From positions 4,754 through 68,753 of the forward strand of contig CAVXVV010000040.1 in NCBI GenBank assembly GCA_963765195.1: a DNA stretch of 64,000 nucleotides, in the 5' to 3' direction. This document shows positions 1 to 46,755 of the stretch, piece after piece. This DNA comes from an uncultured Candidatus Rokubacteria bacterium. GTDB lineage: Bacteria > Methylomirabilota > Methylomirabilia > Rokubacteriales > DASRDR01. Numbering within the stretch: position 1 is the stretch's first letter; each line of letters opens with the position of its first letter. Made by a program: the position numbers and the translations under genes. The notes under the pieces are model-generated. The model was not told the DNA's origin, did no database searches, and worked only from the letters and a program-made list of their open reading frames with translations.

Positions 1-101
1 TGGAAGCCGCCCTGGGGATCACTCGCGAGGACACCCGGACCGCGGAGTACTACCGGACGGCGGCGCCGAGCACCCGGCATGTTCGTCTGGATTCGGCCTG
101 A
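1..101 (+). CDS. 3' end of a DUF2997-like small protein (partial)
   Basis: Frame from base 3 reads EAALGITREDTRTAEYYRTAAPSTRHVRLDSA*, resembling the 'LEEALG...RTAEYY' C-terminus of DUF2997; not in the ORF track. Confidence 0.6.
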   Translation, partial: EAALGITREDTRTAEYYRTAAPSTRHVRLDSA

Positions 102-330
102 CGGTACCGTCCATCTCGTCTACGACGACGCGTTGCGGGGTCTGCTCGCGCTCGGGCCGGCCGCGATTCGCCGCGCGTCCCACGTCGAGCCCACGCCCGA
201 CGGGCGGTGGACGGCCGACCTCGGACCGATGGAGGGACCCGTGCTCGGGCCGTTCACGACCCGGGCGGCCGCGCTCGAAGCCGAGCAGGTGTGGCTGGTG
301 CACCACTTCGCGTCCGGACACCCCCAGTGA
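79..330 (+). CDS. Conserved hypothetical 83-aa protein of Ycf46/DUF2997-type element clusters
   Basis: IRRASHVEP...GRWTADLGP..GPVLGPF.TR.AAL.AE.VWL motif recalled from similar clusters in Planctomycetota; high GC3 codon usage. Confidence 0.75.
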   Translation: MFVWIRPDGTVHLVYDDALRGLLALGPAAIRRASHVEPTPDGRWTADLGPMEGPVLGPFTTRAAALEAEQVWLVHHFASGHPQ

Positions 331-341
331 GGAGAGTGATT

Positions 342-728
342 GTGCGATCCGAGTCGCTGGCTTCCGCCACCGCCATCCCCCCGGACCCGCCCGAGGCCCG
401 CGCGCCCGCGCGGGTGCATGCGTCCCTCACGGCCCTGCCCGGACTCCTGGCGGAGGCGGATCTCGCCGAAGCGCACGTCGAGGGCCGCGACCGACGCACC
501 GGGACGCTCGTCGCGTACAGCTTCGTCACGATCCACCGGGCGCTGGCCCTGCACGTCGCGGAAGCCGTCCGCGCGGCGCTCGCACGGCTCGAGATCGAGG
601 TCAGACCCGACGGATCCCGCCAGGAAGCGCGCGAGGCGTCCGACCGCGAGGGTTCGCACGCCGACGGCGCCGCCGCGGGCCATGTGGCCCCACAGGAGCG
701 CGATGATGTCCCGGGCCAGTATCTCTGA
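342..728 (+). CDS. Hypothetical protein
   Basis: GGAG RBS at 331-334, GTG start, packed between neighbouring ORFs. Confidence 0.55.
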   Translation: MRSESLASATAIPPDPPEARAPARVHASLTALPGLLAEADLAEAHVEGRDRRTGTLVAYSFVTIHRALALHVAEAVRAALARLEIEVRPDGSRQEAREASDREGSHADGAAAGHVAPQERDDVPGQYL

Positions 729-729
729 G

Positions 730-1071
730 GTGACCGGCGGCGTGCGGCGACGCCGCATCGCCGGCTCACGACGGCGCGGTCGAAGAGCACGCCACGTCGG
801 CGGCCGGGGGCCGGCGATCCCGTCGCTGGCCATCGTCGTCCAAGGCGGGACCGTCCAGGGCGTCTATGCGGGGCGGCGCGGTCGATTCACGGTGCACCTC
901 CTCGACGACGACGACCTCCGCGCCGACGACGACCTCGCCGAGGGCGTCGCGACGACCGGCATGCTGCCCGAGCTGGCCGTCGAACCCGGGCTCGCGACCG
1001 CCGTGGCCGAGTACCGCGCGGTGGCCGCCCATCAGGCGCGACATCGGCCGGCCGTGGAGATCGGGTCGTGA
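730..1071 (+). CDS. Hypothetical protein
   Basis: GTG immediately after the upstream stop; IVVQGGTVQGVY...VHLLDDDD pattern typical of small phage/ICE proteins; stop overlaps next start (GTGA). Confidence 0.55.
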   Translation: MTGGVRRRRIAGSRRRGRRARHVGGRGPAIPSLAIVVQGGTVQGVYAGRRGRFTVHLLDDDDLRADDDLAEGVATTGMLPELAVEPGLATAVAEYRAVAAHQARHRPAVEIGS

Positions 1072-1421
1072 CGACGGTGCGTGCGTCCGTCTCCCGCTGC
1101 GTCGTGTGTCAGCCTCCGGGGCGGCCGGCGTCCCGGCGCTGTGCGGACTGCCGGGAGCCGGTGCACCAGCGTGGCCAGGCCGCGCACGCCTGCGCCCCGA
1201 AGCGGGCACGCATGGCGGCCCTGGAGGCGGCGGCCCGCGCACGGCTCCTGACCTATCGCGTGATCCTCACCCTCCACGTGGACCAGGCCCTCGACTCGCC
1301 GGCCTCATGGGACTGGCCGAGCCGTCTCGGGCTGCGTCCGCCCGAGCGCGTGGTCGCCCACGTGGAGCGGCTCCGCGAGGAGACCGGTGAGACTGGCGCA
1401 CCCGTGAGGCCGCCATCGTGA
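1068..1421 (+). CDS. Hypothetical protein with putative Zn-binding CxxC...CxxC...H...HxC motif
   Basis: CVVC, CADC, H and HAC residues; GTGA overlaps at both ends. Confidence 0.6.
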   Translation: MTTVRASVSRCVVCQPPGRPASRRCADCREPVHQRGQAAHACAPKRARMAALEAAARARLLTYRVILTLHVDQALDSPASWDWPSRLGLRPPERVVAHVERLREETGETGAPVRPPS

Positions 1422-1684
1422 CCCGCCTCAGCGGCGACGAGCTGCGCGACGGCGACGTCTGGAACGGCTTCGACGACGCGCTCCAGGTCTGGGTCATCGA
1501 CGGGGTCGCGCAGTCCTGCGGGCACCCGGTGGCGATGCCGCGCGGGGGCGCCTGCTGCCCGGCACTCCGCCTGGCCGGCCGCCGCATCGAGACGATTCCC
1601 GGTGCGCAGCGCCGCCCTCCCACGGCGGACGGCGGCGCGGGATCGAGCCGAACGGATCACCCCGGGCCTCGCACCGAGGCCTGA
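1418..1684 (+). CDS. Small Cys/His hypothetical protein
   Basis: GFDDALQVWVIDG...CGHP...CCP motif; translationally coupled to upstream ORF. Confidence 0.6.
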   Translation: MTRLSGDELRDGDVWNGFDDALQVWVIDGVAQSCGHPVAMPRGGACCPALRLAGRRIETIPGAQRRPPTADGGAGSSRTDHPGPRTEA

Positions 1685-1757
1685 GCCACCTCGACCCCCC
1701 CGCGTGCGTGGCGCACACCCGCACGCGTCTTCTCTTCCGCTGCCCAGGGAGAACGGC

Positions 1758-3318
1758 ATGCTGAGTCCATTTGCCGAACGGCTTCGCGACTACCTGCGCG
1801 CGGGATACCCCGCGCTCGCCGTCGTCACGCACGAGGAGGAACGCCTGCTCGGCGACCTCCGGACGCTCACAGACCGCCGGGTGGGCGGTGGTGACGTGGA
1901 CCATGGCCCGCGGCTGGGTCGACGCCGACGGCCGGGTCTTGAACCAGGGGCAGGGCGACCCCCTCCGGGCGGTGCAGGCCCTGGCGACGCTCCCCGAGAA
2001 GACGGTGGCGGTCTTCTTCGACCTCCATCCCTACCTCGCCCAGCTCCCGGAACTGGTCCGCGCCGTGCGGGACGCGTTCCCGGCCGCGAAGGCCACGCAG
2101 CGGCCCCTGCTCTTCTGCTCGCCCGAGCCGACGTGGCCCGTGGAGTGGGAGAAGGACGTCGCGCCGCTCGACTATCCCTTGCCGTCGAGGGAGGCCCTCC
2201 GCGGCGTCCTCGACGAGTTGCTGGCCCCCGCGAAGGTCACCCTGTCGCCCGCCGTGCGCGACGCCATGCTCGAAGCCGCCCGCGGCCTCACGTGGAACGA
2301 GGCCGAGAACGCGTTCGCCCTGGCCCTGATGCGCGACCGGACGCGGATCGCGGCGATGCCGGCGACCGTCCAGGCCGAGAAGACCGCGCTGGTCCGGAAA
2401 TCCGGACTCCTGGACCTCCTCACGCCGGCCGAGACGCTCGACGGGGTGGGCGGGCTCGCGCCGCTCAAGGCCTGGATCGCCGGACAGGGCGCGCTCCTCG
2501 CCCGCGCCGCCGAGGCCCTCGCGTGGGGGTTCGCCGCGCGCGATCTGCCGAAGGGCGTGCTGCTCCTCGGGGTCCCGGGCACCGGCAAGAGCCTCCTCGC
2601 GCGCGCGATCGCCGGCAGCTGGGGCCTCCCGCTCCTCCGGCTCGAGATGGCCCGGATCCTCGGGAGCCTCGTCGGCCAGTCCGAGGCGCGGACGCAGAGC
2701 GCCCTCCGCCTCGCGGAGGCGATGGCCCCGTGTGTCCTCCACGTCGACGAGATCGAGAAGACGCTGGCGGGCGCGGGCGCGGGGCACCTCGATTCCGGCG
2801 TCAGCAGCCGGGTCGTTGGGAGTCTGCTCACCTGGCTCCAGGAGCGCGGACTCGGCCGGGACGGGACCCCCGCGCCGGTGTTCGTCGTGGCGACGGCGAA
2901 CCGGGTCGAGGCGCTCCCGCCGGAGCTGTTCCGCCCCGGCCGGTTCGACCAGGTGTTCTTCCTCGACCTCCCCGAGCCGACGGAGCGCGCCGCGGTCCTC
3001 GAGATCCACCTCCGCGCTCGGCGGCAGTCCGTGCCGCGCGACGCGATCGAGGCGCTCGCCGCGCGCACGGAAGGGTACAGCGCGGCCGAGCTCGAGCAGG
3101 TCGTCAAGGCGGCCTGCCTGCGCGCGTTCCAGGACGGCGGCCGCCGCCTGCATCCCGCGGACCTCGAGGCCGCGCGCCCGAGCGTCACGCCGCTGGCGGA
3201 GAGCCGCGCCGAGGAGATCGCCGTGATCCGTGGATGGGCGCGGACGCGCGCCCAGCGCGCCAACGGTCCCGCCGGGCTCGCGGACGGCCACACCGGGCGG
3301 CGCCGGCTCGACGAGTAG
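1758..3318 (+). CDS. Ycf46-type AAA+ ATPase (one frameshift near 1880)
   Basis: N-term LRDYLRAGYPALAVVTHEEER; Walker A GVPGTGKS, Walker B LHVDEIEK, ATAN sensor, RPGRFD Arg finger, C-term VTPLAESRAEEIAVIRGWA; GGGAG RBS. Confidence 0.85.
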
Positions 3319-3355
3319 CGAGTCACCCTCACTGCACCCAGGAGGGACCCCACCC

Positions 3356-4401
3356 ATGTCTGACCCCCTGGCCACCGGCATCCTCCTGAAGCTCGACGTG
3401 ACGACCTGGACCGGGTCCGCCGCCCTGAGCGCCCCCGACCTCGGACTCGACCCGGGCACCGTGGCCGCGCACTACACCCTCGGCCGCAAGCGGCTGGTGC
3501 CGAAGGCCGCCCTGGACCCGATCGCCACGATCGTCCGCCAGGCTCGCTACGCGCTCGATGGGTTGAGCCACGCGTTGCCCGACGGAAGCCGCTTCGTCCT
3601 CGCCGCGGCCACCCCCGAGGTCGAGGCGCAGCTCACCCGCACGCGGGCGCGGTTCGGCCACGCCGTCGAGACGTTCCTCGCAGGGTACCCACGGTGGCGC
3701 GCGGAGATGGCGCCCCAGTGGGACGCGGCGGCCCGCGCGGCCTGGCACACCGCGGGACGCCCAGGGGACGCCACCACCTTCGTCACGGCGTTCCTCGCCC
3801 GAGTCGCGGCCGCGTACCCCATGGCCGACGCGCTCCGGCGGCGCTTCGACTTCTTCTGGTGGACCTACTCGCTCCGGGTCGCGGGCACGGAGCGGGTGGA
3901 ACTCATCGGCCTCGCCGACGCCGAGCGGGCCCGCCGCACGGCGGACGCCACCTACCGCGCGGAGGTCGAGGCGCGCGTCGCGGCGGCGCTGGAGCAGAGC
4001 CTCGCGGGCTTCCGGGCCCAGCTCGCCGAGGCTGCCAGGCCGTCCTCGCACACCTCCGGTCCGGGCGGCCCCTCCGCGAGGGCGCGGTCGCCCGCTTGCG
4101 GCGAACCATCCAGCGCTTCCGCGCCCTCAACCTCGTCGAGGACGACGCGGTCGAGTCCCAGCTCGCCACGTTCGAGCAGACGTGCCTGGACGGCCTCGAT
4201 CCGGCCGCGGTGCACCACGCCCCCGACCTGCGCGCGACGCTCACGGCGGGGCTCCAGGCGGTCGTCGAGGCCGCCACGGCGGAGTGGCCGCAGAGTGCGC
4301 TGACCGGCCGCGCGCTGCGTCGCTTCGATGTCGAGATCGAGGGCGAACCCGGCGTCCCGGCGACCGCCGGGGCGACCCCCGAATCTCCCGTCGCCGCGTG
4401 A
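3356..4401 (+). CDS. DUF3150-like protein (frameshift near 4035)
   Basis: LKLDVTTWTGSAALSAPDLG...LGRKRLVPKAALDP N-terminus and LRRTIQRFRALNL C-terminal part in a second frame; GGAGG RBS. Confidence 0.7.
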
Positions 4402-6381
4402 CCGGCGCACGGGTCAGCCGGTGGTCCGCGATCGCCGCCTCTCACCACGAGAGCCGCACGGGGGTCAGGCCCCTCGACGAGACGCTGGCGGCCCTGCACC
4501 CGGGCCAGCGCGCGGCCGTCACCCACCCGGCCCGGCCCCTGCTGCTCGCCTGCGGGCCCGGCAGCGGCAAGACCCGGATCCTGACCCACCGGATCGAGTG
4601 GTTGATCGAGCACGAGCAGGTCGAGCCGGCCGCGATCCTCGCCCTCACCTTCTCCCGGGCGGCCGCGGACGAGCTGCGCGGGCGGGTCGCCCACGCGCTC
4701 GGCCGGCGCGCGCGGACCCTCTGGGCCGGCACCTTCCACGGGTTCGGGGCCTGGCTCCTGCGGCGCCACGCGACGGCGGTGGGTCGGACGCCCGCCTTCA
4801 CCATCCTGGATCGCGACGATACCCGTCGCCTCGTCGCCCGCCTCGCGAAGGACCTGCGCCTCGAGGGCGACCTGCCCACGCTCGTCGAGGCCCTGGAGCG
4901 GGCGAGGACCCCCGGGGTCCCTGGCACCCCAGGCCCGGTGGACCCGGCGCGGTCCCCGATCGCGGCGCTCCGGGTCGCCTATGAGGCCCGGTGCCGCCAG
5001 GCGAACGCGTTCGACTTCCTGGATCTGCTGGCGGAGCCGCTCGCGTTGCTCGCCCGTGAGCCGACCGTGCGGGCGGCGCTGCGGGCCCGCTTCCGGGCGG
5101 TGCTGGTCGACGAGGCGCAGGACCTGTGCGCCCTGCAGCACGCGCTCATCGAGGCGCTCGCCGCCCCGGACGGGGCGCTGACCCTCGCCGGCGACGATGA
5201 TCAGGCCATCTACGGCTGGCGGGGGGCGGACCTGACGCGCCTCCACGCCTTCGAGCGCACGTACCCCGGCGGCACGGTGCTGGCCGTCGGCCGGAACTAC
5301 CGGTCGACCCCGCAGATCGTGACGACGGCCGCGCGGCTCATCGCCCACAACCGGGCCCGGCGGCCCAAGCCCCTCACCGCGGTGCGGCGCACGGGGCCCG
5401 ATCCCACCGTCCTGACCTGGCCGGACGACCGGGCGGAGGCCCAGGGGCTGGCCGCCGCCTGTGCGGACTGGCTCCGCGCGAGTGCCCTCGCCGATCGCGG
5501 TCCTCGCGCGGGTGACGGCCTGCCTGACGCCGATCGCCCGCGCGTGCGCCGCGGGCGGGCTCAGCGTGCGGGTCCTGGCGGAGCGGCCCCTCGCCGAGCG
5601 CGCGGCCGTGCGCGACGTCCTCGCCGTGTGCCGCGTCCTCGTGAATCCGGCCGACTGGCCCGCGTGGGAGCGCGTGCTGCGCTGCGCAGCGCTGCGGGAT
5701 CGGCGCGAAGACCGTGGCCACCCTGCGCGGTCGCGTCGCCGTCGTCGGGGTGACCGACATCGCTGGCGGAGGTCGCGCGGACCCGCCCCCGGCTGGCGGC
5801 GCTCCTCCAGCAGCTCGCGGACTGGCGGGCCGCGCGGCTCCCGGTGAGCCAGCTCCTCGAGACACTGGCGCGGGACGTCAGCGGCCAGCCGTCGAACACG
5901 GGCCGATCGACCACCGCGGATGGCCGAGGCACGCCGAACCGAGGACCTCGCCGCGCTGGTGGCCGTCGCGCGGCGATGGGACGCGGACGGCGGCGGCAGC
6001 CTGGGCGAGTTCCTCGACACCCTCGTGCTGAGCGACGAGGACCCGGGCGCCCCCGCGGCGACCCAGGTGCTCGGTCTCACGCTCCACGCGGCGAAGGGGC
6101 TCGAGTTCGACACCGTGGTCATCGTGGGCGCCGAGGAAGGGCTCCTGCCCCACTATCGACACACCGTCCCCGAGGCGCTCGCCGAGGAGCGACGCCTCTG
6201 CTACGTGGGGATGACCCGGGCCCGGGAGCGGCTCGTGCTCTCCGTGGCCCGCATGCGACGCCTCTGGGGCGAGGTCGTCTTCCGACCGCCCTCGCGCTTC
6301 CTCCGCGAGGCGGGGCTGCACGTCCAGCCGGCCTCCCCGAGCGCCATCACCCCCACACCCCAGGAGGTCAGTCCGTCATGA
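4398..6381 (+). CDS. UvrD/PcrA-family SF1 helicase (several frameshifts at about 5490-5920)
   Basis: Motifs ACGPGSGKT, LTFSRAAA, GTFHGFG, LVDEAQD, GDDDQAIYGWRGAD, NYRSTPQI, TLHAAKGLEFD, EERRLCYVGMTRARERL. Confidence 0.85.
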
Positions 6382-7641
6382 GCCTGACCGCCGCCGAGAC
6401 CACGGCCGAGCGGCTGCCGCGGGTGAGCCCGTCCCGCCTCGAGGCCTGGGACCGGTGCCCGGCCGCGTACCGGTTTGCGTATGTCCTGGGGCTGCCGCAG
6501 CCGGTGGCCGACCAGTCGCCACGGCTGCTCGGGTCCGTGGCCCACGCGCTCGTCGAGACGTACGTCCGCGAGGCGCAGACGACGGGGACTCCACCGCCAC
6601 TCGATCGGCTCCCGGCCCTGGCGCGGGCACTCCTGAGTGGAAAGGCACTGCCGGAGGCGACGACGGCGGGGCTCGCGCGTGAGGCCACCGAGCTCGTCCG
6701 TGCGTGGCTGAGCCGTTGGACCGTGCCCCTGGCCCAGACCGTGGGCATCGAGCACGCCCTCGCGATCGATGCCAGGGGTGCGCGTGTCGCGTGGGAGGCT
6801 CCGGACGCCTTCCTCCGCGGCCGGCTCGACCTCGTGGCCGTGGAGGGTCGGCAGGCCACCGTCTACGACTGGAAGAGCGGCTGGCTGACCGAGGACGACG
6901 AGGGCCTGCGGCGCGCGTGGGCGCCGGGCTGCTACGCCGCCCTCCTGTGGGCGTGGGCGCCGCGGCTCGAGACCGTCGCCGTCGAGTACCACTACCTCCG
7001 CACCGGCCGAGTCACCCAGGCCACGTTCGCCCCGAGCGGACGCTGCCGAAACACTCGCGTGGGTGCGCACGATCGGAGCGCGCATCGCCGAGGCCCTGGC
7101 CCGCCCCGACGATCCGGCCGCCTTCCCGCCCCGGCCCTCGACCGCATGCGCCACGTGTCCCTGGGTGAACCGGTGCCCGGCTGGTCACGCCGCCCTCGAA
7201 GCCATGGCGGAGGCGCCGATCGCCGACGACGCTGAGGCTCGCCGGCTCGGCGCACTCCTGCTGGCCGGCGAGGCACGCGTGGGACGCCTCCGTGAGCGAC
7301 TTCGGCAGTACCTCCAGGACCGCGAGCCCATCGCGCTCGACGGGGTGGAGCTCGGCTTCTTCCCCACGAAGGGCCGCTACGACGCCGCGGCCGTCTTCCG
7401 CGCGGCCACCGAAGCGGGAATCGATCCCTGGCCCCTCCTCGCCGCCGACGGCCGCGCCCTTGCGACCTTTCTCAAGCGCCGGCCCGACACGGAGCGGACC
7501 CTCGCTCCGGCTTGGACCGCGACGGCGCCGTGGTTCGGCCACAGGAAGGCGGCGGCTCTATCGGCAGCGCGCCAAGCGCGGACGTCCGCGGGCACAGGAA
7601 CAGCTGCCGGGATGGTGGATCGACAGCCACAGGCCCACTGA
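6378..7641 (+). CDS. PD-(D/E)XK nuclease, AddB/Cas4-like with 4-Cys Fe-S motif (frameshift near 7035)
   Basis: SPSRLEAWDRCP, GSVAH, LRGRLDLV...DWKSG, C-terminal CATCPWVNRCP; ATGA overlap with helicase. Confidence 0.8.
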
Positions 7642-7769
7642 TCGGGTCCGCCCGGTCAGGTGCAACCGAACCGCGCTGCGCTCGTGACGCAGTGGCTCCC
7701 ATCCTCCAGGTGTCGCGGTTCCTGGCGCGGCATTTCGAAAAGGCAAGCCGGAGACCGGAGGGAAAGCGC

Positions 7770-7985
7770 ATGGCCATCATAGGCATCCGGGAGGAGCCCA
7801 CCGCACGGGGGACGGGGACCCGAGAGATTCGGAAGGGCCTCGACCGACCGGCGGTGATCATAAGCGGATCGTGCTCGGACTCCGCCTTCGTCCCGGCGGA
7901 GATCCTCCTCTGTGCGGACACGCTCGCTGCCGAGGTGGCGATGCGGGCGTGGCTCGAAGGACATGGCATCCGTCTGGCCGGCTGA
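7770..7985 (+). CDS. Small hypothetical protein
   Basis: GGAGGG RBS before ATG; no recognisable motif. Confidence 0.35.
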   Translation: MAIIGIREEPTARGTGTREIRKGLDRPAVIISGSCSDSAFVPAEILLCADTLAAEVAMRAWLEGHGIRLAG

Positions 7986-8380
7986 CAGGCTCAAGGAACG
8001 GCGGAAGGTCTCGGTGAGCCACGCCACAACCGACCGAGCCGAGAAAGGGCTCACCGGTGTTCGCCTCCGAGCGCGACCGGCGCCCCGACGTGCCATCACG
8101 TCGGCTCGCCGCACCTCAGTTCCCCTACCAGCAAAAGTCCACTCCCACCCTGGCCGACGGGGATGGAACGATGTCGCCGCCGTTCATGCGACGCTTGCCG
8201 ATCCCCCGCCATCGTCAACCTGGCGCCCCGAGCTCGAGCGCGAGGTGGTCCACTTGCTGGCCGACATCCTAGTCCGCGATTTTCAAGCACTTCCGCCGAG
8301 CCACGGTCGAATCTCGGGGGAGAAACGCCCGTAGAAATCCTCTGGACACCGGCGCGCTCGGCCTGCAGCATAGGGCCGCT

Positions 8381-9040
8381 TTGAGTCTGGATATGGAGAT
8401 AAGGGTCCTTCGGTCCAACGGTCAGCGTGCCACTATCGGGGGACCGTTCGCCGCAGTCTTCCCCGTGAACATGGGGAACAGAGGGCAAAACGTGCTCAAT
8501 GTTCCGGACACGTATCGGGCACTGCAGGTGCACTCCGGAGCTGTACGCTTCGTCGCGTACCACCCAAGGATCTCGGGGAACTTCATATTTGTGGTCGAAA
8601 CCGCCGACGCGCTCGCCGAGGCTTCCAAGATCGGTCAGGCGGTAACGGGGTTGCCCTGCCTCGCGCGACGGTTCGAAGAGTTGCAGGACCTCGACATTTC
8701 GGTCCCAAAGCATGCCTTCACCGTGAGACGCTCCGTCCTCGTGGATACTCCACGAGGGAGGCAAAGAGTAATCGCTGTATTCCTCTCGCATCCCGTCCCT
8801 CCATCGCTACGAATCACGGGACTGATCGGGCCTCGGGTGGAGAGCATCTCGTGGCCGTCTGAGCGCGATGTTCTCTGCCTCTATGACCGACCCGGTGAAG
8901 CAGGTGACGTCGGCCAAGTGACACGGAAGATGGTGGGCGTGCTGAAGCAGCGCGGAGCATCGAAGGACCTGATTGGGACGGGGCGCGCTCTTAGTGTCGT
9001 GCGCGACCTCGTGACAGGAGAGGGGTTATGGTGCGATTGA
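8381..9040 (+). CDS. Divergent DUF1697-like protein, lower GC than flanks
   Basis: PVNMG...SGNFIF...GTGRALSVVRDL resembles the DUF1697 GINVGG/SGNVVF/TARNWNTV motifs; visibly more A/T-rich. Confidence 0.45.
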   Translation: MSLDMEIRVLRSNGQRATIGGPFAAVFPVNMGNRGQNVLNVPDTYRALQVHSGAVRFVAYHPRISGNFIFVVETADALAEASKIGQAVTGLPCLARRFEELQDLDISVPKHAFTVRRSVLVDTPRGRQRVIAVFLSHPVPPSLRITGLIGPRVESISWPSERDVLCLYDRPGEAGDVGQVTRKMVGVLKQRGASKDLIGTGRALSVVRDLVTGEGLWCD

Positions 9041-9080
9041 CGATCGGCGCGGGTCGGTCAAACGATCGAGACTGCTCGGT

Positions 9081-10811
9081 ATGATCGCCGCGATCTACGC
9101 CAGGAAGTCGACCGAGCAGCGGGGCGTGGCTGACGAGGAACGATCGGTCACGCGCCAGATCGAGCACGCCAAGGCTTACGCGGCACGGAAGGGCTGGACC
9201 GTCGCCGAGGACCACGTTTACGTCGACGACGGCATCTCGGGTGCCGAGTTCGTGAAGCGGCCGGGGCTGGCGAGGCTCATGAACGTGCTCAGGCCTCGCC
9301 CCTCCTTCCAGGTGCTCGTGATGAGCGAAGAATCGCGCTTCGGGCGCGAGCAGATCGAGACCGCGTATCTCTTCAAGCAAATCACGGACGCCGGCGTCCG
9401 CGTCTTCTTCTATCTCGAGGATCGCGAGCGCACCCTGGACAACGCGCTCGACAAGGTGATGCTCTCGCTGACGAACTTCGCGGCCGAGATGGAGCGCGAG
9501 AAGGCTCGGCAGCGGACATACGACGCCATGCTGCGCAAGGCCAAGGCGGGCCACGTGGCCAGTGGCAAGGTGTACGGCTACGACAACGTCGAAGTCGTGT
9601 CCACCCCACCCGACATGGACGGCAACGGCAAACGGCTGCACGTCCTGCGGCGAATCAATGAGGAACAGGCTGCCGTGGTGCGGCGGATCTTCGACCTGTG
9701 CGCGGGCGGGATGGGCTTTACGCGGATCGCGAAGGCGCTGAACCGGGACGGGGTGATGCCGCCGCGCGGTGACGGGCGAGGTTGGGCGCCCACCGCCGTG
9801 CGCGAGATGCTCTACCGACCGCTCTATCGAGGCCAGATCGTCTGGAACAAGAGCCAGAAGATCGACCGGGGCGGCACAAAGAAGCAGCGCCGCCGCCCGC
9901 CCGAGGAGTGGATCCAGCTGGACGCGCCGGAGCTACGTATCGTGCCGGAGGAGATGTGGGAGGCGGCTCACACGCGCCTGGAGCAGGCTCGTGAGGCGTT
10001 CGCGCGCGCCAGGGGCAGCGGCCAGCTCCTCGGGAGACCCTCGAGGCTCGACATGGACTCGCCCTACCTGCTGACCGGGATGGCCCGGTGCGCACGCTGC
10101 GGGGGCGCGATGATCGCCATGACCCGAAGCCACGGCAAGAAGCGGGGGCACTTCTACGGCTGCGCATACAACCACAAGCGGGGAGCAGCTGTCTGCTCGA
10201 ACGACGTGCAGATCCGGCAGGACGTCCTCGATCTGGCGCTGCTCGACGCGATCAGCCGCGCGCTCGACGAACGGATCGTGGAGGCCGCGATCGACGAGGC
10301 CCTCGAGCGGCTGCGGAGTGGTCGAGAGCAGCAGCTGGACCGCCGGACGCAGATCGAGCGCGAGCTTTCGCTGATCGAGGGTAAGCAGCGATACCTGGTG
10401 CAGGGCATCACGCGCGGCGAGTCCATGGACCCGCTGCTGGCCGCCATGCGAGAGGAGGAACACCGCAAGAAGTTTCTGGTCGCGGAGCTCGCGACCCTCG
10501 CGGAGCTGGAAAAGGTGGCCTCCCTGGATGCCGAGCGGATCAAGCGAGAGTTGCGGTCACGGGCGGCGGATATCCGAGGGCTCCTCGGGCGCCATCTCCC
10601 CCAGACGCGCCAGATCCTGCGCAAGCTGGTCGTGGGCCGCGTGGAGTGCGAGCCGTTCGAGGACGGCGACAGGCGGGGCTATCGAGTGTCCGGTCAGGGT
10701 ACATACGCCCGGCTATTACCGGGCGGAGAATGTGCCACTAGCATTGGTGGCTCCAACGGGATTCGAACCCGTGTTTCAGCCTTGAGAGGGCCGTGTCCTA
10801 GGCCAGGCTAG
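9081..10811 (+). CDS. Large serine recombinase (integrase) with recombinase and Zn-ribbon domains
   Basis: AAIYARKST catalytic Ser, YVDDGISG, RPGL, SRFGR, YGY, LLTGMARCARCG...YGC...C zinc ribbon, coiled coil. Confidence 0.95.
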   Translation: MIAAIYARKSTEQRGVADEERSVTRQIEHAKAYAARKGWTVAEDHVYVDDGISGAEFVKRPGLARLMNVLRPRPSFQVLVMSEESRFGREQIETAYLFKQITDAGVRVFFYLEDRERTLDNALDKVMLSLTNFAAEMEREKARQRTYDAMLRKAKAGHVASGKVYGYDNVEVVSTPPDMDGNGKRLHVLRRINEEQAAVVRRIFDLCAGGMGFTRIAKALNRDGVMPPRGDGRGWAPTAVREMLYRPLYRGQIVWNKSQKIDRGGTKKQRRRPPEEWIQLDAPELRIVPEEMWEAAHTRLEQAREAFARARGSGQLLGRPSRLDMDSPYLLTGMARCARCGGAMIAMTRSHGKKRGHFYGCAYNHKRGAAVCSNDVQIRQDVLDLALLDAISRALDERIVEAAIDEALERLRSGREQQLDRRTQIERELSLIEGKQRYLVQGITRGESMDPLLAAMREEEHRKKFLVAELATLAELEKVASLDAERIKRELRSRAADIRGLLGRHLPQTRQILRKLVVGRVECEPFEDGDRRGYRVSGQGTYARLLPGGECATSIGGSNGIRTRVSALRGPCPRPG

Positions 10812-10822
10812 ACGATGGAGCC
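10745..10822 (-). tRNA. tRNA-Glu (anticodon CTC)
   Basis: Reverse complement GGCTCCATCGTCTAGCCTGGCCTAGGACACGGCCCT-CTC-AAGGCTGAAACACGGGTTCGAATCCCGTTGGAGCCACCA; cloverleaf with encoded CCA. Confidence 0.95.
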
Positions 10823-37269: not shown

Positions 37270-37887
37270 ATGTCCCTCGCCGCCGAGTTCCTGAAGCTGT
37301 CGCCGACCAGCCTCGCCGACGCGCTGACGCGCGACCGGGTCATGGATATCGGGATCCGGCCGCTCTGGGCCGGCATGCCGCGCGTCGCCGGCCCCGCCTA
37401 CACCGTCCGCTGCGCGCCCGGCGACAACCTCATGGTGCACGCGGCCATCTACCGGGCGGCGCCGGGCGACGTGATCGTCGTCGAGGCGGGCGACGTGGAC
37501 TACGCGGTGGCCGGCGGCAACGTGTGCGCGGTCGCCCAGCGCCACGGCGTGGCGGGATTCGTGGTGGACGGGGTGATCCGCGACGCCGCGGAGGCGCGGG
37601 AGCGCGGCTTCCCGGTCCTGGCCCGCGGCGTCATCCCGATCCCCGGCGCCAAGGACCGGCTTGGCGCGCTGGGCGGCCCGGTCCGGGTCGGCGGCGTGGA
37701 GGTGCAGCCGGGCGACATCGTGGTGGGCGACGAGGAGGGCGTCGTCGTGGTGCCGCTCGCGCGCGCGACCCACGTCCTCCAGGCCGCCCGCGCTCGCGCC
37801 GAGAAGGACGCGGCCACGAGCCTCGACGCGTGGGAGAAGGCCCACCGCGCCCGCATCGACGAGACCCTGAAGAAGCTCGGCTTCTGA
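37270..37887 (+). CDS. RraA/HMG aldolase family protein
   Basis: AGPAYTV...GDNL, DGVIRD, PGDIVVGDEEGVVVVP. Confidence 0.9.
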   Translation: MSLAAEFLKLSPTSLADALTRDRVMDIGIRPLWAGMPRVAGPAYTVRCAPGDNLMVHAAIYRAAPGDVIVVEAGDVDYAVAGGNVCAVAQRHGVAGFVVDGVIRDAAEARERGFPVLARGVIPIPGAKDRLGALGGPVRVGGVEVQPGDIVVGDEEGVVVVPLARATHVLQAARARAEKDAATSLDAWEKAHRARIDETLKKLGF

Positions 37888-37889
37888 GC

Positions 37890-37965
37890 GGGGTCAGGCC
37901 TTGACTTCCATACAGTTCGCCTCACGCCGCCCGACGAGCATGTATGGAAGTCAAGGCCTGACCCC
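37890..37965. repeat. REPIN-like hairpin with perfect 25-bp inverted arms between convergent genes
   Basis: GGGGTCAGGCCTTGACTTCCATACA ... TGTATGGAAGTCAAGGCCTGACCCC. Confidence 0.9.
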
Positions 37966-38732
37966 TACCGCGTCGTGGCCGTGAGGCCGGCGTCGATGAC
38001 GAGGACGTGGCCCGTCACCCAGCGCGACTCGTCGCTCGCCAGGTAGACCGCGCCCCAGCCCACGTCCCAGCCGGTGCCCTCGGTGCCGAGGGGGTTCGCC
38101 TTCCGACGCCGCTCGCGCGCGTCGGCGCCGAGCGCCTCGACCATCGGCGTCCAGACCGTGCCGGGGGCGATCGCGTTGATCCGGATGCCCTGGGGCCCGA
38201 GCTGCACCGCCACCGTGCGGACGAAGCCCTCGATGCCGGCCTTCGCCGCCGCGTAGGCGGTGCGCCCGTGGCCGCGGTGCGCGGCAACCGACGACACGCA
38301 GATCACGGAGCCGCCGCCGCGCGCGACGAGGGCGGGCACGGCCGCGCGGGTCGAGAGGAACACGGACTTCAGGTCGACGGCGAGGACCCGGTCCCACTCC
38401 TCCTCGGTCGTGTCGAGGAGGTCGTTCCGGGACTCGACGCCGACGTTGTTGTGGAGGACGTCGAGGCCGCCCCAGCGGGCGACCGCCGCGTCGACCATGG
38501 CGCGGCAGTCGTCGGGGCGCGTGACGTCCGCCGCGACCGCCGCCGCCTCGCCGCCCTCGGCGCGGATCAGCCCGACCGTCTCCTCCGCCCGCGGGAGGAC
38601 CTGGTCGACGCACAGGACGCGGGCGCCCTCGCGCGCGAACAGGATGGCCGCCGCCTTGCCGTTCCCGACGCCCGGCCCGCGCGAACCGGCGCCCGTGACG
38701 ATCGCGACCTTCCCGTGCAGCCGGCCTGCCAT
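37965..38732 (-). CDS. SDR family oxidoreductase
   Basis: TGAGSRGPGVGNG, HNNVG, YAAAK. Confidence 0.9.
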   Translation of the reverse strand: MAGRLHGKVAIVTGAGSRGPGVGNGKAAAILFAREGARVLCVDQVLPRAEETVGLIRAEGGEAAAVAADVTRPDDCRAMVDAAVARWGGLDVLHNNVGVESRNDLLDTTEEEWDRVLAVDLKSVFLSTRAAVPALVARGGGSVICVSSVAAHRGHGRTAYAAAKAGIEGFVRTVAVQLGPQGIRINAIAPGTVWTPMVEALGADARERRRKANPLGTEGTGWDVGWGAVYLASDESRWVTGHVLVIDAGLTATTR

Positions 38733-38781
38733 GGCCCGCCGAGCCTAGCCGGCCTCGGGTGGGCCCGTCAAGGCGCACACC

Positions 38782-38919
38782 CAAGTGCGGGGTCAGGCCC
38801 CGCCTTTGATCCTGGAGCCGCTTCCGACGGGACCGCAGGAGGCTGCCGGAAAACCCAAGTGGGGGCCTGCCCCGACTTTGACGTCTTGATGGCGCGGCGG
38901 GAATTGTCCGGAAGTCTAA
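38782..38919. repeat. REP-like cluster, last unit interrupted by IS630
   Basis: CGGGGTCAGGCCCCGCCTTTGA, GGGGGCCTGCCCCGACTTTGA, GAATTGTCCGGAAGTCTAA|IS. Confidence 0.7.
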
Positions 38920-40189
38920 GTACACCGAATCATGAATTCGTTCCGGGTTTCCTTGGGGTTCCGGATGCCCTCGCGCTATCGTGGATTCGATGCGGGCGAG
39001 GGGTCGGCGCATGGCGGAACGCCGTGGCCCGAAGCCGCAGCACAAGGTGGCGCTGACGGCACCGGAACATCGGGAGCTCCAACGACTCACCCGGCGTCGC
39101 ACCGCCCCCTATGCGGAAGTGGTGCGGGCGAAGATTCTGCTCCTGGCCTATGAGCACCCGGAGTGGAGCAACGCGGCCATTGCCCGAGCGGTGGGCTGCA
39201 CGGATCGGACGGTGCGCAAATGGCGGGGGCGCAGCCGGGCCGGGCCGGTTCTGCAGGACGCGCCCCGGCCCGGTGGACCACGTTTTTTCCCCCTCAGCGG
39301 TCCGGGCGCAGGTCACCGCGTTGGCCTGCACGCTGCCGCGGGATTCCGGTAAACCGCTCTCTCGCTGGTCGACCGCCGAACTCACCCGCGCGGTCGTCCA
39401 GCGCGGCATCGTCCGGCGCATCTCAGGCGCCACCGTCCAGCGCTGGCTCCAGGCCGACCGCATCAAGCCGTGGCAATACCACAGCTGGCAACGCCCCACC
39501 GACCCGCGCTTCCTCGAACGGGCCATTCCGATTCTGAGCCTGTACGAACGCGCCCAGCGGCTCGCCCGAAGGGGCCACCTCCTCGTCTGCGCGGATGAGA
39601 AGACGTCGATCCAGGCCCGGCGGGCCTGCGGGCCCCTGACACCAGCGCGGCCTGGTCGGCCACTGCACCTGCCGGATCGCTATCAGCGCCGGGGCGCGGT
39701 GCAGCTGTTCGGCGGTCTGGCGGTGCACACCGGCGAGACCCTGGCGCGCTGCTTTGAGCGCAAGCGCTTTGTCGAGTTCCAGAGCTTCCTGCGGATGCTC
39801 TTCGGGAGCGTCTGGTGCCGGCGGATTCGCAGCCTCCACCTGATCCTGGACAACGGCTCCGCGCATGCCCCCAAGCGCCTGCCAGCCTGGCTCACGAGCC
39901 TCGGTCTGCCGTTTCCCGTCCACCTCCATTGGCTGCCGGTGAATGTCTCCTGGCTCGACCAGATCGAGATCGTGTTCAGCGACCTGCAACGCAAGGCACT
40001 CACGCCCAACGACTTTGCGAGCACCGATCACGTGCGTGAGCGCATCCTGGCTTTCTTCGCCGAGCGCAACCGACGGGCTCAACCGATCCGGTGGACCTAC
40101 ACCACCCAGAAGCTTCTGGCCAAAGTCCGCCGTCAGCGGAGGCTGGCGGCGACCGGCTAAACCCGGAACGAATTCATGATTCGGTGTAC
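38920..40189 (+). mobile_element. IS630-family insertion sequence
   Basis: Perfect 31-bp TIRs GTACACCGAATCATGAATTCGTTCCGGGTTT (38920-38950 / 40159-40189), TAA duplicated at 38917-38919 and 40190-40192. Confidence 0.93.
39011..40160 (+). CDS. IS630 transposase in two frames (HTH orfA + DDE orfB) joined at TTTTTTCCCCC near 39283-39293
   Basis: RAKILLLA...TVRKWR HTH; ADEKTSIQA, LILDNGSAH, SWLDQIEIVF DDE motifs. Confidence 0.88.
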
Positions 40190-40194
40190 TAAGT

Positions 40195-40272
40195 CTGACG
40201 CCGACCGCGCTGGGCCTCCAGACGATCCTGGCGAGCTTCCTGATCAGCTTGCTCGGGATGGGCAGACGGTGA
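40195..40272 (+). pseudogene. Orphan 3' gene fragment resembling a GT2 glycosyltransferase C-terminus
   Basis: LTPTALGLQTILASFLISLLGMGRR* with coding-like codon usage and no start. Confidence 0.4.
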
Positions 40273-40524
40273 GCTTCGCGACGGTGCGGCTCTGCCCCCC
40301 GGTGACCCTCACTCGAAGCCGTCGATCTCGGCGACCCACGGCCGCTCCGCGGCCCCGTCCGGCGTGAGCCGCACGTGACGCACCTCGGCCGGCGGAAAAG
40401 GTCACGGCCCACTCGTCCGCGCCGTCGCCGACGAACTTGGCGCCGGACGGTCGGGAAGTCGATCCCGGCCGTCCGGCGCCGACTACGGCTACGCCGGAAC
40501 TACAGCCTGACGCGGATGACGGTC

Positions 40525-41908
40525 CTACGCGGGCAACACCGCCTTGATCGAGGCGCGCACGGTCTCCAGCACGCGGTCGATCTGCTGCTCGGTGATGACG
40601 AGCGGCGGCGAGAAGAAGATCATCTCGGCGACCGAGCCGTCCGGCACGGGATAGCTCCGGATGCGGGTCGCGAAGCCGCGCTTCTCCATGTCGCGGCGCA
40701 TGCGGAGCCCGACCTTCTGGTCGGCCGGGAAGCCCGCCTTGGTCGTCCGGTCCGACGACGAGCTCGATCGCCGCGATCAGGCCCTTGCCGCCGCGCACGT
40801 CGCCGATGGCCGGGAGCTCCTTCTGGAGCTCGAGGAGCCCCTGGTAGAGGCGCGTCCCCAGCTTGGCCGAGCGCTCCCAGAGCCGCTCCCGCTCCATGAT
40901 GGCGATGTTCGCGAGCCCGACCGCGCAGCACATGGGATGCCCCGAGTAGGTGTACGCGTGCATCCACCGGTCCTCGGGCTTGACCGAGTTCATCGTCTCG
41001 AAGATGTCGCGGTTCACGACGATACCTCCGAGCGGCGCATAGCCGGAGGTCACCGCCTTCGCGAAGGACTGGATGTCCGGCTGGACGTTCCAGTGGGTCA
41101 GCGCGAACCACTGGCCGGTCCGGCAGAAGCCGGTGATGACCTCGTCGGCGATGAAGAGGACGTCGTGCTTCGTGCAGATCTCGCGGATCCGCGGGAAGTA
41201 GTCGTCCGGCGGCACGATCACGCCGCCGCCGCCGATGATCGGCTCCGCGATGAAGGCCGCCACCGTGTCGGCGCCCTCCCGCAGGATCGCCTCTTCCAGC
41301 TCCCGGGCCGCCGCCTGGCCCACCGTCTCGCCGGGCTTCGCGCCCTGGAAGCGGTAGGGGTACGGCGCCTGGATGTGGAGGAAGCCGGGCACGCGCGGCT
41401 CGAACATCTTCCAGAAGGGGGCCATGCCGGTGGCGCTCATCGCCTGGAGGGTGACGCCGTGGTACGCGTTCTGCCGGGCGATGACCTTGACCTTGTTCGG
41501 CTTGCCCTTCGCCTTCCAGTAGAAGCGGGCGGTCTTGAAGGCCGACTCGTTCGCCTCGGCGCCCCCGCAGGTGAAGTAGACGGCCGCCATGTTCGTGTAG
41601 GACAGGCTCACGATCTTGGTGGCGAGCTCCACGGCGGGGATGTTGGAGTAGCCCACGTAGTTCGAGTAGTACGCGAGCGTCTTCATCTGGTCGGCCGCAG
41701 CCTTCGCGAGCTCGTCGCGGCCGTGCCCGACGCTCACGTTCCAGAGGCCGGCCAGGCCGTCGATGTACTCCTGGCCGTTGATGTCCTTGATGACCGCGCC
41801 CTTCCCTTCCACGATCACCATGGGCTCGGCAGCCTCGGACGAGTGATGCTGCGGGTGGATGAGGTGGGCCTGGTCGTTCTTGACGAGATCGGACGCCGCC
41901 ATGGTCAT
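40525..41908 (-). CDS. Class III aminotransferase (frameshift near 40755)
   Basis: DGLAGLWN, YHGVT, AEPIIGGGG, ADEVITGF, AKAVTSGY, YTYSGHP; C-terminus ...VRASIKAVLPA* in a second frame. Confidence 0.9.
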
Positions 41909-42375
41909 CGAGAGTCCTCCAGCATTGCCACGGTATTAGTGCCACGCGCGCCCGCGAGGTGGACGCGCCAGTCGCCAGATTCGACCCGGGGCCCGCGGCC
42001 GGCCGCCGCCCCGAATCGCTCGTTGTACGCGTAGACCCAGGCTTCGCGCGCCTCCGCGACCGCCCCGTGCACGGCCACGGTGCGCCGCACGTAGAGGCTC
42101 CCGGCCTCGTCGGCGGGGTCGTACCACTCCTCGCGATCCAGAACGGGCAGCCGCGCGGGCAGGTCCGGCACGCGATAGAGCTCGCCCGCGACCCAGCCGC
42201 CGTCGTCGAGCACGAGGCCGGGATAGTCGCCGAAGTGGTAGAGGGAGCCGCGAATGCGCCCGCGCCCTTCGAGGAGCGCGGCGCCGAGGAGCGGACGTCG
42301 CGAGAAACCCGTCATCAGCGTGCCATAGGTGAAGAGCCGGTCCGGACCCGGAGCGGAATCGGCACCGGCCGCCAT
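41905..42375 (-). CDS. Gamma-glutamylcyclotransferase (AIG2-like)
   Basis: LFTYGTLM, YPGL, VAGELY, LDREE, AWVY, SGDW. Confidence 0.85.
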   Translation of the reverse strand: MAAGADSAPGPDRLFTYGTLMTGFSRRPLLGAALLEGRGRIRGSLYHFGDYPGLVLDDGGWVAGELYRVPDLPARLPVLDREEWYDPADEAGSLYVRRTVAVHGAVAEAREAWVYAYNERFGAAAGRGPRVESGDWRVHLAGARGTNTVAMLEDSR

Positions 42376-42527
42376 CACGGCGGTCATTGTAGCAGCGGGG
42401 TCAGACCGCGTCGAGGCGGGCGCGTCCCCCGCCCCGTGGTTGACGCGGCCGCGGTCCAGCGGTTCCACTACGGTCCGCGGGGCGCCGCGGACGAGAGCCG
42501 CGGGCGAGACGAACCCTTCAAGCCTAG

Positions 42528-44222: not shown

Positions 44223-44234
44223 CTAGGAGGACTC

Positions 44235-44642
44235 ATGGCGCCTCACGCCCGTATCACGGCGGCGCTTCTGGCCGCGATGTGGCTCGCCGCCGGATCGCTC
44301 GCGGGAGCCCAGCCGACCGGCGAGGGCGCGAAGTTCTACGCGGAGTACCGGGCCGCCTTCGCGAAGGCCAAGGCCGTGGAGGACGTCCTGCCGTACCTCT
44401 CGAAGAGCCGCGTCGCGATGGTGGACAAGACGCCGAAGGAGGACCGCGCCAAGATGTTCGGCCTCATGAAGGCGCTGGATGTGCAGGACGTCAAGGTGCT
44501 GAAGGAATCGAGGACGGAGACGGGCTACGTGCTGGAGGCCGTGGGCAAGGGCGGGATGGGACCCGGGGACGCGAAGGGCACGATCAGCATCGTGCGGGAG
44601 GCCGGCAAGCTGAAGCTCGACAGGGAGAGCTGGAAGCAGTAG
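44235..44642 (+). CDS. Secreted hypothetical protein
   Basis: Signal-peptide-like N-terminus; GGAGG RBS. Confidence 0.8.
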   Translation: MAPHARITAALLAAMWLAAGSLAGAQPTGEGAKFYAEYRAAFAKAKAVEDVLPYLSKSRVAMVDKTPKEDRAKMFGLMKALDVQDVKVLKESRTETGYVLEAVGKGGMGPGDAKGTISIVREAGKLKLDRESWKQ

Positions 44643-44687
44643 CCCGCGCGGGCGGGCGCGGCCCGGCGACGGTCCCGCCGCCCCGGG

Positions 44688-46679: not shown

Positions 46680-46755
46680 GATGGCCCCCATCGTACCCCA
46701 GCGCGGACCAGGTTTGACCCGAAGGCCGGGATCGCGATACCGTTGATGCATCGAC

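Follow-up and report, generated by a model that had tools for sequence, protein, structure and literature searches.

The gene run at the left edge of the DNA analysed here raises two questions: which kind of mobile element carries it, and what might a set of small proteins encoded around an AAA+ ATPase do in the bacterial host? The window is a stretch of 64,000 nucleotides, positions 4754-68753 of contig CAVXVV010000040.1 (C40), with 4753 bases of the contig to its left. It comes from an uncultured Candidatus Rokubacteria bacterium whose genome (GCA_963765195.1; labelled G000) comprises 9.1 Mb in 106 contigs, with a completeness of 92.75% and a contamination of 6.98%. We propose that positions 1-10822 of the window are the right arm of an integrated plasmid-like element of about 20 kb of a Rokubacteria-type soil bacterium, and that a 128-aa protein of its AAA+ module, which ends in the motif GQYL, docks to the proteasome of the host. 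Taken as a whole, docking included, this is the best explanation that we can offer, and we hold it with slightly better than even confidence. The main new point is the GQYL-tailed protein encoded in the operon, which suggests a testable link to the host proteasome.

The analysis made use of Pfam, NCBIfam, PADLOC and PHROG profile searches, ARAGORN, AlphaFold2 (AF2), Foldseek, VIA-align, the ESM Atlas and hhalign. Since GC-rich DNA yields many spurious open reading frames (ORFs), coding frames were judged by the codon-position bias of substitutions between copies of the locus that are 72-83% identical. A previous interpretation made from the letters of the window (the sequence-only reading) had assigned genes to DUF2997, a Ycf46-type AAA+ family, DUF3150, UvrD, a PD-(D/E)XK nuclease and a large serine recombinase (LSR); all of these assignments were borne out by Pfam. 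Its proposal of an integrative mobile element is likewise supported, and a gene-neighbourhood check revealed that the module is syntenic in relatives, as had been expected.

The GQYL-tailed protein, the AAA+ module and the host proteasome

The GQYL protein consists of a conserved core, a variable linker and the C-terminal sequence PGQYL. A GQYL C-terminus is present in 106 of the 115 metagenome homologues (104 PGQYL, one QGQYL and one TGQYL); the other nine have either a penultimate tyrosine in an altered motif or unrelated endings, some of which are clearly truncated or frameshifted. In the AF2 model, the protein forms a helical hairpin (residues 17-46 and 54-87) that is followed by a disordered tail of about 40 residues (predicted local distance difference test, pLDDT, <50; mean pLDDT 62). 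Moreover, the position of the gene is kept. Among 15 metagenome contigs, it follows the gene for the RASHVEP protein in all 12 loci that reach that far upstream, and it precedes the genes for Cys-rich, 88-aa and AAA+ proteins in all 13 loci that extend downstream.

The host possesses a Pup-proteasome locus. On contig C47, the genes for ARC/Mpa (748 bits), Dop, PrcB, PrcA and PafA lie together, and ARC/Mpa, PrcA and PrcB score over the cut-off in Pfam. The Pfam family BPA (PF10759) matched neither the host genome nor the control genomes. The host Mpa ends in TTGQYL, and the Mpa proteins of three related Rokubacteria metagenome-assembled genomes (MAGs; G001, G002 and G003) also end in TGQYL. A six-frame translation of the host genome contains five ORFs of at least 60 aa that end in GQYL, namely the three element copies, Mpa and a 403-aa AAA+ protein encoded on contig C78 (145140-146351, minus strand). 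The latter protein has one AAA domain (PF00004, E 3e-17) and the C-terminus RYGQYL; it may be a second, non-Mpa proteasomal ATPase. In published work, GQYL is the motif by which Mpa and PafE/Bpa dock onto the 20S proteasome, and it is reported to be required for the opening of the 20S gate (PMC12288473, PMC6017811). A complex prediction with two PrcA chains and the 128-aa protein gave a median of 0.47 compared to 0.00 for the best of three controls. This is a weak pass of a calibration mark that was reached by 58 of 80 solved complexes and by 2 of 110 mismatches. Judging by the tail and by this model, the GQYL protein is a candidate 20S-proteasome docking protein. Literature searches on GQYL, on mobile elements and the proteasome, and on Rokubacteria and the proteasome retrieved no element-encoded docking protein (supplementary files aside); the relevant GQYL papers, among the matches listed, concern Mpa, Bpa/PafE or Cpa, and others use the string in unrelated contexts.

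The GQYL gene is part of a module with the gene order DUF1257-like gene, DUF2997, RASHVEP, GQYL protein, one or two Cys-rich proteins, AAA+ and DUF3150. Among solved structures, the AAA domain of the ATPase is closest to the D2 domain of p97/VAT (E 1e-55), and its first ~250 residues have no relative there. The ATPase also matches the phage family phrog_8638 over residues 36-505 (E 4e-106). All NCBIfam matches of the AAA+ protein are far under the cut-off, and PADLOC returned only partial generic AAA matches for it (IetA, TRIP13) and none for the other nine proteins. The AF2 model of the DUF3150 protein (pLDDT 88.5, predicted template modelling score 0.73) has an N-terminal alpha/beta part and long helices that end in a helical bundle. 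No convincing solved relative was found for it, the best Foldseek match having an E of 0.72. A fold match obtained with VIA-align was discarded because it covered the C-terminal helical bundle only, with Z <=10, values too low to carry meaning for folds of this type. The ESM Atlas clusters nearest to DUF3150 are 72-89% viral.

Judging by their sequences, several proteins of the element share an RR-hydrophobic C-terminal tail: the AAA+ ATPase ends in GRRRLDE, a SWIM-like protein in PRRRFDLS and the DUF2997 protein in HVRLDSA, an ending that is kept in all diverged copies, and the DUF3150 protein carries ALRRFDVE 24 residues before its end. The 88-aa protein has the sequence GRRIETIPG near its end. 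Only seven of the 6095 predicted host genes encode RR[LFIVM][DE] within three residues of the end, three of which belong to the element (the AAA+ gene in two copies and the gene for the SWIM-like protein). Furthermore, a [KR][KR]-hydrophobic-x-hydrophobic pattern occurs in the last 12 residues of 57 of 131 full-length DUF3150 homologues (drawn from the best 150 of 479 representative clusters, E <=0.001), as compared to 4 of 382 control genes and 0 of 131 internal windows.

Relatives of the module are found in other mobile elements. By tblastn, relatives of the AAA+ protein were detected in 127 phage records, four of which cover at least 80% of the query, and in 1213-1215 plasmid records, 60-61 of them with such coverage; a related-locus search with the AAA+ protein in viral contigs retrieved no relative. 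Five annotated loci were inspected. In four of them, an AAA+ gene is followed by a gene for a 130-141-aa protein and by DUF2997, namely in Arthrobacter pZXY22 and a Rhodococcus plasmid, which are both actinobacterial conjugative plasmids, in the IncC plasmid pRMH760 and in Aeromonas phage HJ05; the fifth is that of phage Firecracker. The sequence-only reading had expected AAA+, DUF2997 and DUF3150 to occur together, and they do so in the copies of the element. DUF2997, however, is absent genome-wide from 33 of 34 genomes with chromosomal AAA+ relatives of 30-37% identity and present in one, and the AAA+ family is thus wider than the module. A set of 55 genome loci with AAA+ relatives was dropped as synteny evidence because they are mostly chromosomal and lack the module, and jackhmmer searches over these loci found the partners only in the copies from Rokubacteria and in a small number of plasmid or phage loci. 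A literature search on the three DUF names revealed no publication on the AAA+/DUF1257/DUF2997 module.

Copies, integrases and borders of the element

The host MAG contains three copies of the core of the element, on C40, on C39 (97% identical over 12.3 kb) and on C34 together with C91 (72-83% identical), and G001, G002 and G003 have one copy each. Contig C2 of G001 (G001C2) includes both flanks, with the element extending from about 16.6-16.9 kb to about 37 kb. The gene order of the family begins with two ParB-like genes, a gene for an actin-like (ParM/ALP) partition ATPase, a repeat block and genes for a single-stranded DNA-binding protein (SSB) and RadC. These are followed by genes for a PolB-exonuclease-like protein, the SWIM-like protein and a probable annealing protein, by the AAA+ module, and by UvrD, PD-(D/E)XK and integrase genes. 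In G001C2, the ParB-like genes match phrog_4715 and its relatives (E 2e-7 to 6e-4), the partition ATPase has ALP_N and MreB-like_C domains in Pfam and matches phrog_691 (E 6e-26), and the left arm further contains a 144-aa gene, a block of ~75-bp repeats and SSB.

On C40, the bases to the left of the window encode SSB, RadC, the PolB-exonuclease-like protein, the SWIM-like protein (126 aa), a 334-aa protein, a DUF1257-like protein and a protein of ~200-230 residues with an uncertain start and no family match. In the ESM Atlas, the 334-aa protein is similar to annealing proteins of the Sak type (score 0.93), with nothing found in Pfam or among the sequences of solved structures; by its ESM Atlas features, it is probably a Sak/Rad52-like annealing protein. 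The label SWIM-like refers to a CxC...CxH pattern that was read by eye, as Pfam gives no match. A DUF1257 gene had been predicted to the left of the window, and a DUF1257-like gene was found just outside its left edge, with a weak Pfam match (E 0.004, 17.8 bits, under the cut-off of 22.2). An iterative search linked its product to a 141-aa protein of phage HJ05 (E 2e-13), which itself passes DUF1257 (E 2.4e-8). In agreement with the sequence-only reading, capsid, terminase, relaxase and type IV secretion system (T4SS) genes, and also lysis genes, were not found among the scanned ORFs of the ~20-kb sister copy (G001C2 minus 18.5-19.9 kb). The left arm, which had been suggested as a place to look for transfer or virion genes, contains none among the scanned ORFs and is plasmid-like instead, with its ParB-like, actin-like partition ATPase and SSB genes.

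Two further observations concern the sister copies. On the reverse strand of C91 (~2250-3880), two additional genes, a DUF1257 paralogue and a RASHVEP-like gene, are inserted between DUF3150 and UvrD. To the right of the tyrosine integrase in G001C2 (37348-47221), three large genes of 698, 1077 and 981 aa lie on the minus strand, and the start of one of them is SMC/AAA-ATPase-like; this region may be a separate island at a tRNA-Asp gene (47576-47653).

The shared core stops at window positions 7551-7986, and the integration gene past that point differs from copy to copy. The window copy has the LSR, the copy in G001C2 a 351-aa tyrosine integrase, that on C39 an HTH_17 protein and a 439-aa tyrosine integrase, and that on C91 a 373-aa tyrosine integrase, all three tyrosine integrases belonging to the Phage_integrase family. 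The GC content is ~75% at 1-7500 and 63-68% at 7500-10500. In run X1, the summed contig depth is ~90-440 over 1-7480 as compared to 1-30 over 7481-10472, which fits a common core with rare, swapped ends. Because the same core, at 72-97% identity, joins three different tyrosine integrases, and because the LSR segment has a GC content of its own and occurs much less often in metagenome contigs, the LSR is, by these comparisons, a swappable integration module of this copy only. Window positions 1-7480 are covered by contigs of 90-99% identity in 4 of 4 runs compared, which come from different studies, and the core thus looks geographically widespread. Twenty public runs of 17 studies (soil, sediment, bog and cave) carry 21-45% of the sampled words of window positions 1-10000.

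The right border coincides with the tRNA-Glu(ctc) gene, since similarity to the uninterrupted tRNA-Glu locus of G001 begins exactly at 10745; the LSR ORF overlaps the tRNA gene by 66 bases. A duplicated 3' end of this tRNA gene had been predicted. Partial copies of its 3' half (47-50 nt, 94-100% identical) do exist elsewhere in the host genome, on C75 (38930-38979 and 25948-25994), C25 (32624-32670) and C60 (32473-32522), but none of them could be linked to the window element, and the left end of the element is not found in their surroundings. In this genome, integrating elements seem to have targeted the tRNA-Glu(ctc) gene repeatedly. The sequence that flanks the uninterrupted G001 locus on its left could not be matched in G000, the borders of the G001C2 element showed no direct repeats, and contig C75 diverges from G001C2 and never rejoins it. 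Contig joints were also considered as excision junctions and rejected, as their sides are short (20-30 letters).

Compared to the sister copies, the SSB, AAA+, DUF3150, UvrD and PD-(D/E)XK genes of the copy at hand are broken. In the AAA+ gene, which truly starts at 1758, the first 37 codons are out of frame, with one extra base near 1870; the gene is intact in C39. The DUF3150 gene (true end 4401) has a frameshift near 4033, the PD-(D/E)XK gene, a single ORF in C91 (reverse strand) and in G001C2, has one near 7030, and the SSB gene to the left of the window is frameshifted as well. The UvrD gene, which is intact in the G002 copy (629 aa), has 1-base indels at 4514, 5488, 5681, 5758 and 5921 relative to the sister locus L004 and an in-frame stop codon at 5845-5847. 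Furthermore, the G002 copy (C18) has a clean deletion equivalent to C40 7206-8829, by which the C-terminal half of AAA+ and the start of DUF3150 are removed. From the breaks in five genes, the window copy appears to be either decaying or mis-assembled. A truly intact window copy whose breaks stem from assembly errors would agree with differences in G-run length and a 4-base indel that are also seen in chromosomal coding DNA between 99.3%-identical MAG contigs, with break positions that differ from copy to copy, and with the presence of three 72-97%-identical copies in one MAG, which could confuse consensus building. However, the UvrD indels lie mostly outside homopolymers, and contigs of four other studies show the sister-copy state at positions 1870, 4032, 5484, 5681, 5758, 5921 and 7034. 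Moreover, two metagenome contigs of other origin carry breaks of their own, a DUF3150 frameshift and an AAA+ in-frame stop codon, and real decay thus occurs in the element family. We consider the explanation by assembly errors plausible, with a chance somewhat short of even.

Proposed mechanism and competing explanations

Gene content, synteny, the exchange of integrases, the conserved motifs and the existence of a host proteasome are observations. In the mechanism that we infer for the binding events and for the direction of their effect, the AAA+ protein would be a Cdc48/p97-like hexameric protein remodeller. Its partners would be addressed via the common basic-hydrophobic C-terminal tail that is carried by the ATPase itself and by the SWIM-like, DUF2997 and DUF3150 proteins. 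In a proteasome-bearing host lineage, the module would have gained the 128-aa GQYL protein, whose tail, being flexible and ending in GQYL, would most likely insert into pockets in the alpha ring of the host's 20S proteasome. The outcome would be either a coupling of module substrates to degradation, with the GQYL protein as an adaptor or activator, or a competition with the host Mpa. That the element recruits the host 20S proteasome via a trans-acting GQYL adaptor, the AAA+ module being an element-encoded proteasomal regulatory particle, is a tentative idea that we regard as rather doubtful.

Several observations weigh against the plasmid-like element with a docking GQYL protein as a whole. 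The left attachment site attL was not found, because contig C40 starts inside the element, and neither a replication initiator nor a transfer gene was recognised among the scanned ORFs, with G001C2 18.5-19.9 kb outside the scan. Every copy is broken at its own places, two Illumina-type metagenome contigs included, and many copies of the element may be dead. With respect to the ATPase, the majority of the 120 homologues listed have the sequence [SG]L[IV]G in pore loop 1 (SLIGS 32, GLVGS 31, SLVGQ 27, GLIGS 8); the label unfoldase is weakened by a leucine where most unfoldases have an aromatic residue. The strict tail pattern is present in only 9 of the 111 AAA+ homologues listed; in favour of a shared tail, the closest AAA+ homologues do end in RRRLSE, RRRLHG or RRLLDLG. 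DUF3150 was not detected beside AAA+ in the IncC pRMH760 and phage HJ05 loci, gp99 of Firecracker gives a weak DUF3150 signal (hhalign E 0.024), and by these sequence comparisons DUF3150 is not a universal partner of the module. The GQYL gene was found in 3 of 185,579 species genomes, all of them Rokubacteria MAGs, and in this element family only. Its product has no Pfam family (BPA included), no relative among solved chains in a profile search and no similarity to the host Mpa, and the present data lend no support to ring formation. The neighbourhood of AAA+ in the two actinobacterial plasmids, phage Firecracker, the IncC plasmid and HJ05 contains no ORF that ends in GQYL, and the GQYL gene is thus a lineage-specific addition. 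Because the hosts of the two plasmids and of mycobacteriophage Firecracker have proteasomes, a link to the proteasome cannot be what the module does in general. In the docking prediction, the pLDDT of the partner is 36-41 and the run-to-run contact agreement at least 15%; passes at <=0.60 are wrong in the majority of cases if the guess was not a likely one beforehand, and the score may reflect remembered solved complexes of Mpa or Bpa with the 20S proteasome.

Three other explanations have to be weighed. The GQYL protein could be an anti-host factor that is independent of the AAA+ module, occupies the alpha-ring pockets of the 20S proteasome and blocks Mpa, which would save proteins of the element from being degraded in a Pup-dependent manner or disturb the stress responses of the host. 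The same motif evidence applies to this explanation; the protein is small and mostly hairpin plus tail, no physical tie connects it to the AAA+ protein, and modules of other hosts do without it. However, the gene is embedded in the module operon at every locus seen, and because the role reported for the motif in Mpa and PafE is gate opening, inhibition is not the default expectation. We consider both the blockade and the protective or perturbing effects that would follow from it unlikely.

The sequence-only reading had proposed a distinct class of LSR-integrating elements, with the LSR and an AAA+/DUF2997/DUF3150 core serving establishment, anti-defence or recombination. The LSR is indeed intact and abuts the 3' end of tRNA-Glu, and DNA-processing genes surround the core. 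Paralogues of its N-terminal part are encoded on eight other host contigs, and the partial tRNA-Glu 3' halves occur at four further places (E <1e-14), which argues that LSR-type elements are active in this lineage. The proposal of a class defined by its LSR is not supported by the comparison of copies, as the LSR is not conserved across the family: sister copies with the same core have three tyrosine integrases instead, and the lower GC content and the low X1 depth of the LSR segment set it apart from the core. The PADLOC matches, restricted to the generic AAA domain in a search that included no anti-defence library, also speak against this proposal, which appears improbable to us. The element could alternatively be a decayed phage satellite or prophage remnant whose AAA+ module is phage cargo without a role in the integrated state. 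The full-length match of AAA+ to phrog_8638, the 127 phage records with relatives, the viral bias of the DUF3150 clusters, the similarity of the probable single-strand annealing protein to phage Sak proteins and the frame breaks in all copies are in line with this idea. Yet no virion, terminase or lysis gene is present among the scanned ORFs of the 20-kb sister copy, and the ParB-like genes and the actin-like partition ATPase point to a plasmid lifestyle. Moreover, the identity of 90-99% at which the core is kept across studies argues for recent spread. Such a remnant is very improbable in our estimate. The integrated plasmid-like element with its candidate docking protein is the explanation on which the following comparison is based.

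Genes of the window and comparison with known systems

Features of window positions 1-10822, with the evidence for each assignment
Feature	Positions	Strand	Evidence and remarks
DUF2997 gene, 3' end	1-101	+	Whole gene L001 4651-4854, 67 aa; Pfam PF11211 E 1.5e-14, 54 bits (cut-off 24.1); phrog_23133 E 8.6e-10
RASHVEP protein, 83 aa, motif RRASHVEP	79-330	+	Third-codon-position substitution bias; no Pfam family
GQYL protein ("c173"), 128 aa	342-728	+	Frame backed by substitution phase
Cys-rich protein, 117 aa	1068-1421	+	Substitution phase; no Pfam family
Cys-containing protein, 88 aa	1418-1684	+	Substitution phase
Ycf46-type classical AAA+ ATPase, 520 aa when intact	1758-3318	+	PF00004 E 8e-27; AAA_lid_3
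DUF3150 protein, ~348 aa	3356-4401	+	PF11348 E 4.9e-12, 46-47 bits (cut-off 24.9)
UvrD-family helicase	~4464-6381	+	PF00580 E 2e-64
PD-(D/E)XK nuclease with C-terminal Cys cluster	6378-7641	+	PDDEXK_1 E 1.4e-21, split over two frames
Lower-GC spacer	7642-9080		GC 0.63-0.67 compared to ~0.75; similarity to sister copies ends at 7551-7986
Large serine recombinase, 576 aa, intact	9081-10811	+	Resolvase, Recombinase, Zn_ribbon_recom; phrog_95 E 7e-88
tRNA-Glu(ctc)	10745-10822	-	ARAGORN; right element border at its 3' end

The genes are co-oriented, as had been stated, with the exception that the spacer contains no recognisable gene; three ORFs found there have no Pfam family. Two of these, at 8096-8791 (minus strand, 231 aa) and 8381-9040 (plus strand, 219 aa), overlap each other before the LSR gene and could, if either is a gene, encode for example a directionality factor. 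Two of the four small ORFs of the sequence-only reading were read in the wrong frame: a coding reading of the listed frames 340-1071 and 866-1390 is unsupported by the substitution pattern between diverged copies, whereas the four frames between 79 and 1684 that are given in the table are supported as coding. Between the GQYL and Cys-rich genes, a further gene for 80 aa is possible at 830-1071 (plus strand), with a weak coding signal and no family; a stretch including it is missing from several metagenome relatives. The 117-aa Cys-rich protein is optional, with homologues in 3 of the 15 metagenome loci and several relatives without it. In the metagenome loci, it is the gene for the 88-aa Cys-containing protein that precedes AAA+.

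In summary, the element is integrative and plasmid-like, its integrases are exchangeable, and the AAA+ module that it carries is widespread but undescribed. It shares with other integrative plasmid-like elements with exchangeable integrases the partition genes, the SSB, the exonuclease-like and probable annealing proteins and an integrase gene at one end, beside a tRNA gene. It differs from them in that no relaxase, coupling protein, T4SS or replication initiator gene was found among the scanned ORFs. Recombination modules with ssb, an annealing protein and an exonuclease are found in SXT/IncC-type elements.

Among solved structures, the AAA domain is nearest to the D2 domain of p97/VAT. Cdc48/p97/VAT has cofactors that bind short terminal peptides, and the sharing of a short C-terminal peptide between operon partners and the ATPase is a further likeness. 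In contrast to these ATPases, the element protein has one AAA domain, and its pore loop 1 is mostly not aromatic among the homologues listed. The gene set of ycf46 (AAA+), ycf35 (DUF1257) and DUF2997 in cyanobacteria and plastids resembles the module in its classical-clade single AAA+ protein with a long N-terminal region, in the DUF2997 protein that passes Pfam and in the DUF1257-like neighbour; furthermore, the AAA+/DUF1257/DUF2997 order recurs on plasmids and phages. In the window element, however, the small genes precede AAA+, and the RASHVEP, Cys-rich, DUF3150 and GQYL proteins and the integrative plasmid-like setting are added. Many phages and the IncC plasmids, which are of clinical importance, carry the AAA+/DUF1257/DUF2997 set, whose function is undescribed in the literature found. 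An operon with a proteasome-docking motif protein points to protein turnover as the business of the module and, if the tentative idea of an element-encoded proteasomal regulatory particle is true, would provide the first functional handle on the Ycf46/Ycf35/DUF2997 gene set.

Close parallels to the GQYL protein are Mpa/ARC and Bpa (PafE), which have a flexible C-terminal tail with GQYL, as has the element protein; moreover, the host of the element possesses PrcAB and an Mpa that ends in GQYL. The element protein differs from both in being without sequence similarity to them, in its length of 128 aa, in its two-helix core and in being encoded on a mobile element inside an AAA+ operon. If its docking is confirmed, it would be, so far as our searches show, the first factor for proteasome docking that a bacterial mobile element encodes, and proteasome biology would be extended to hosts outside the Actinobacteria and to mobile elements that manipulate the proteasome.

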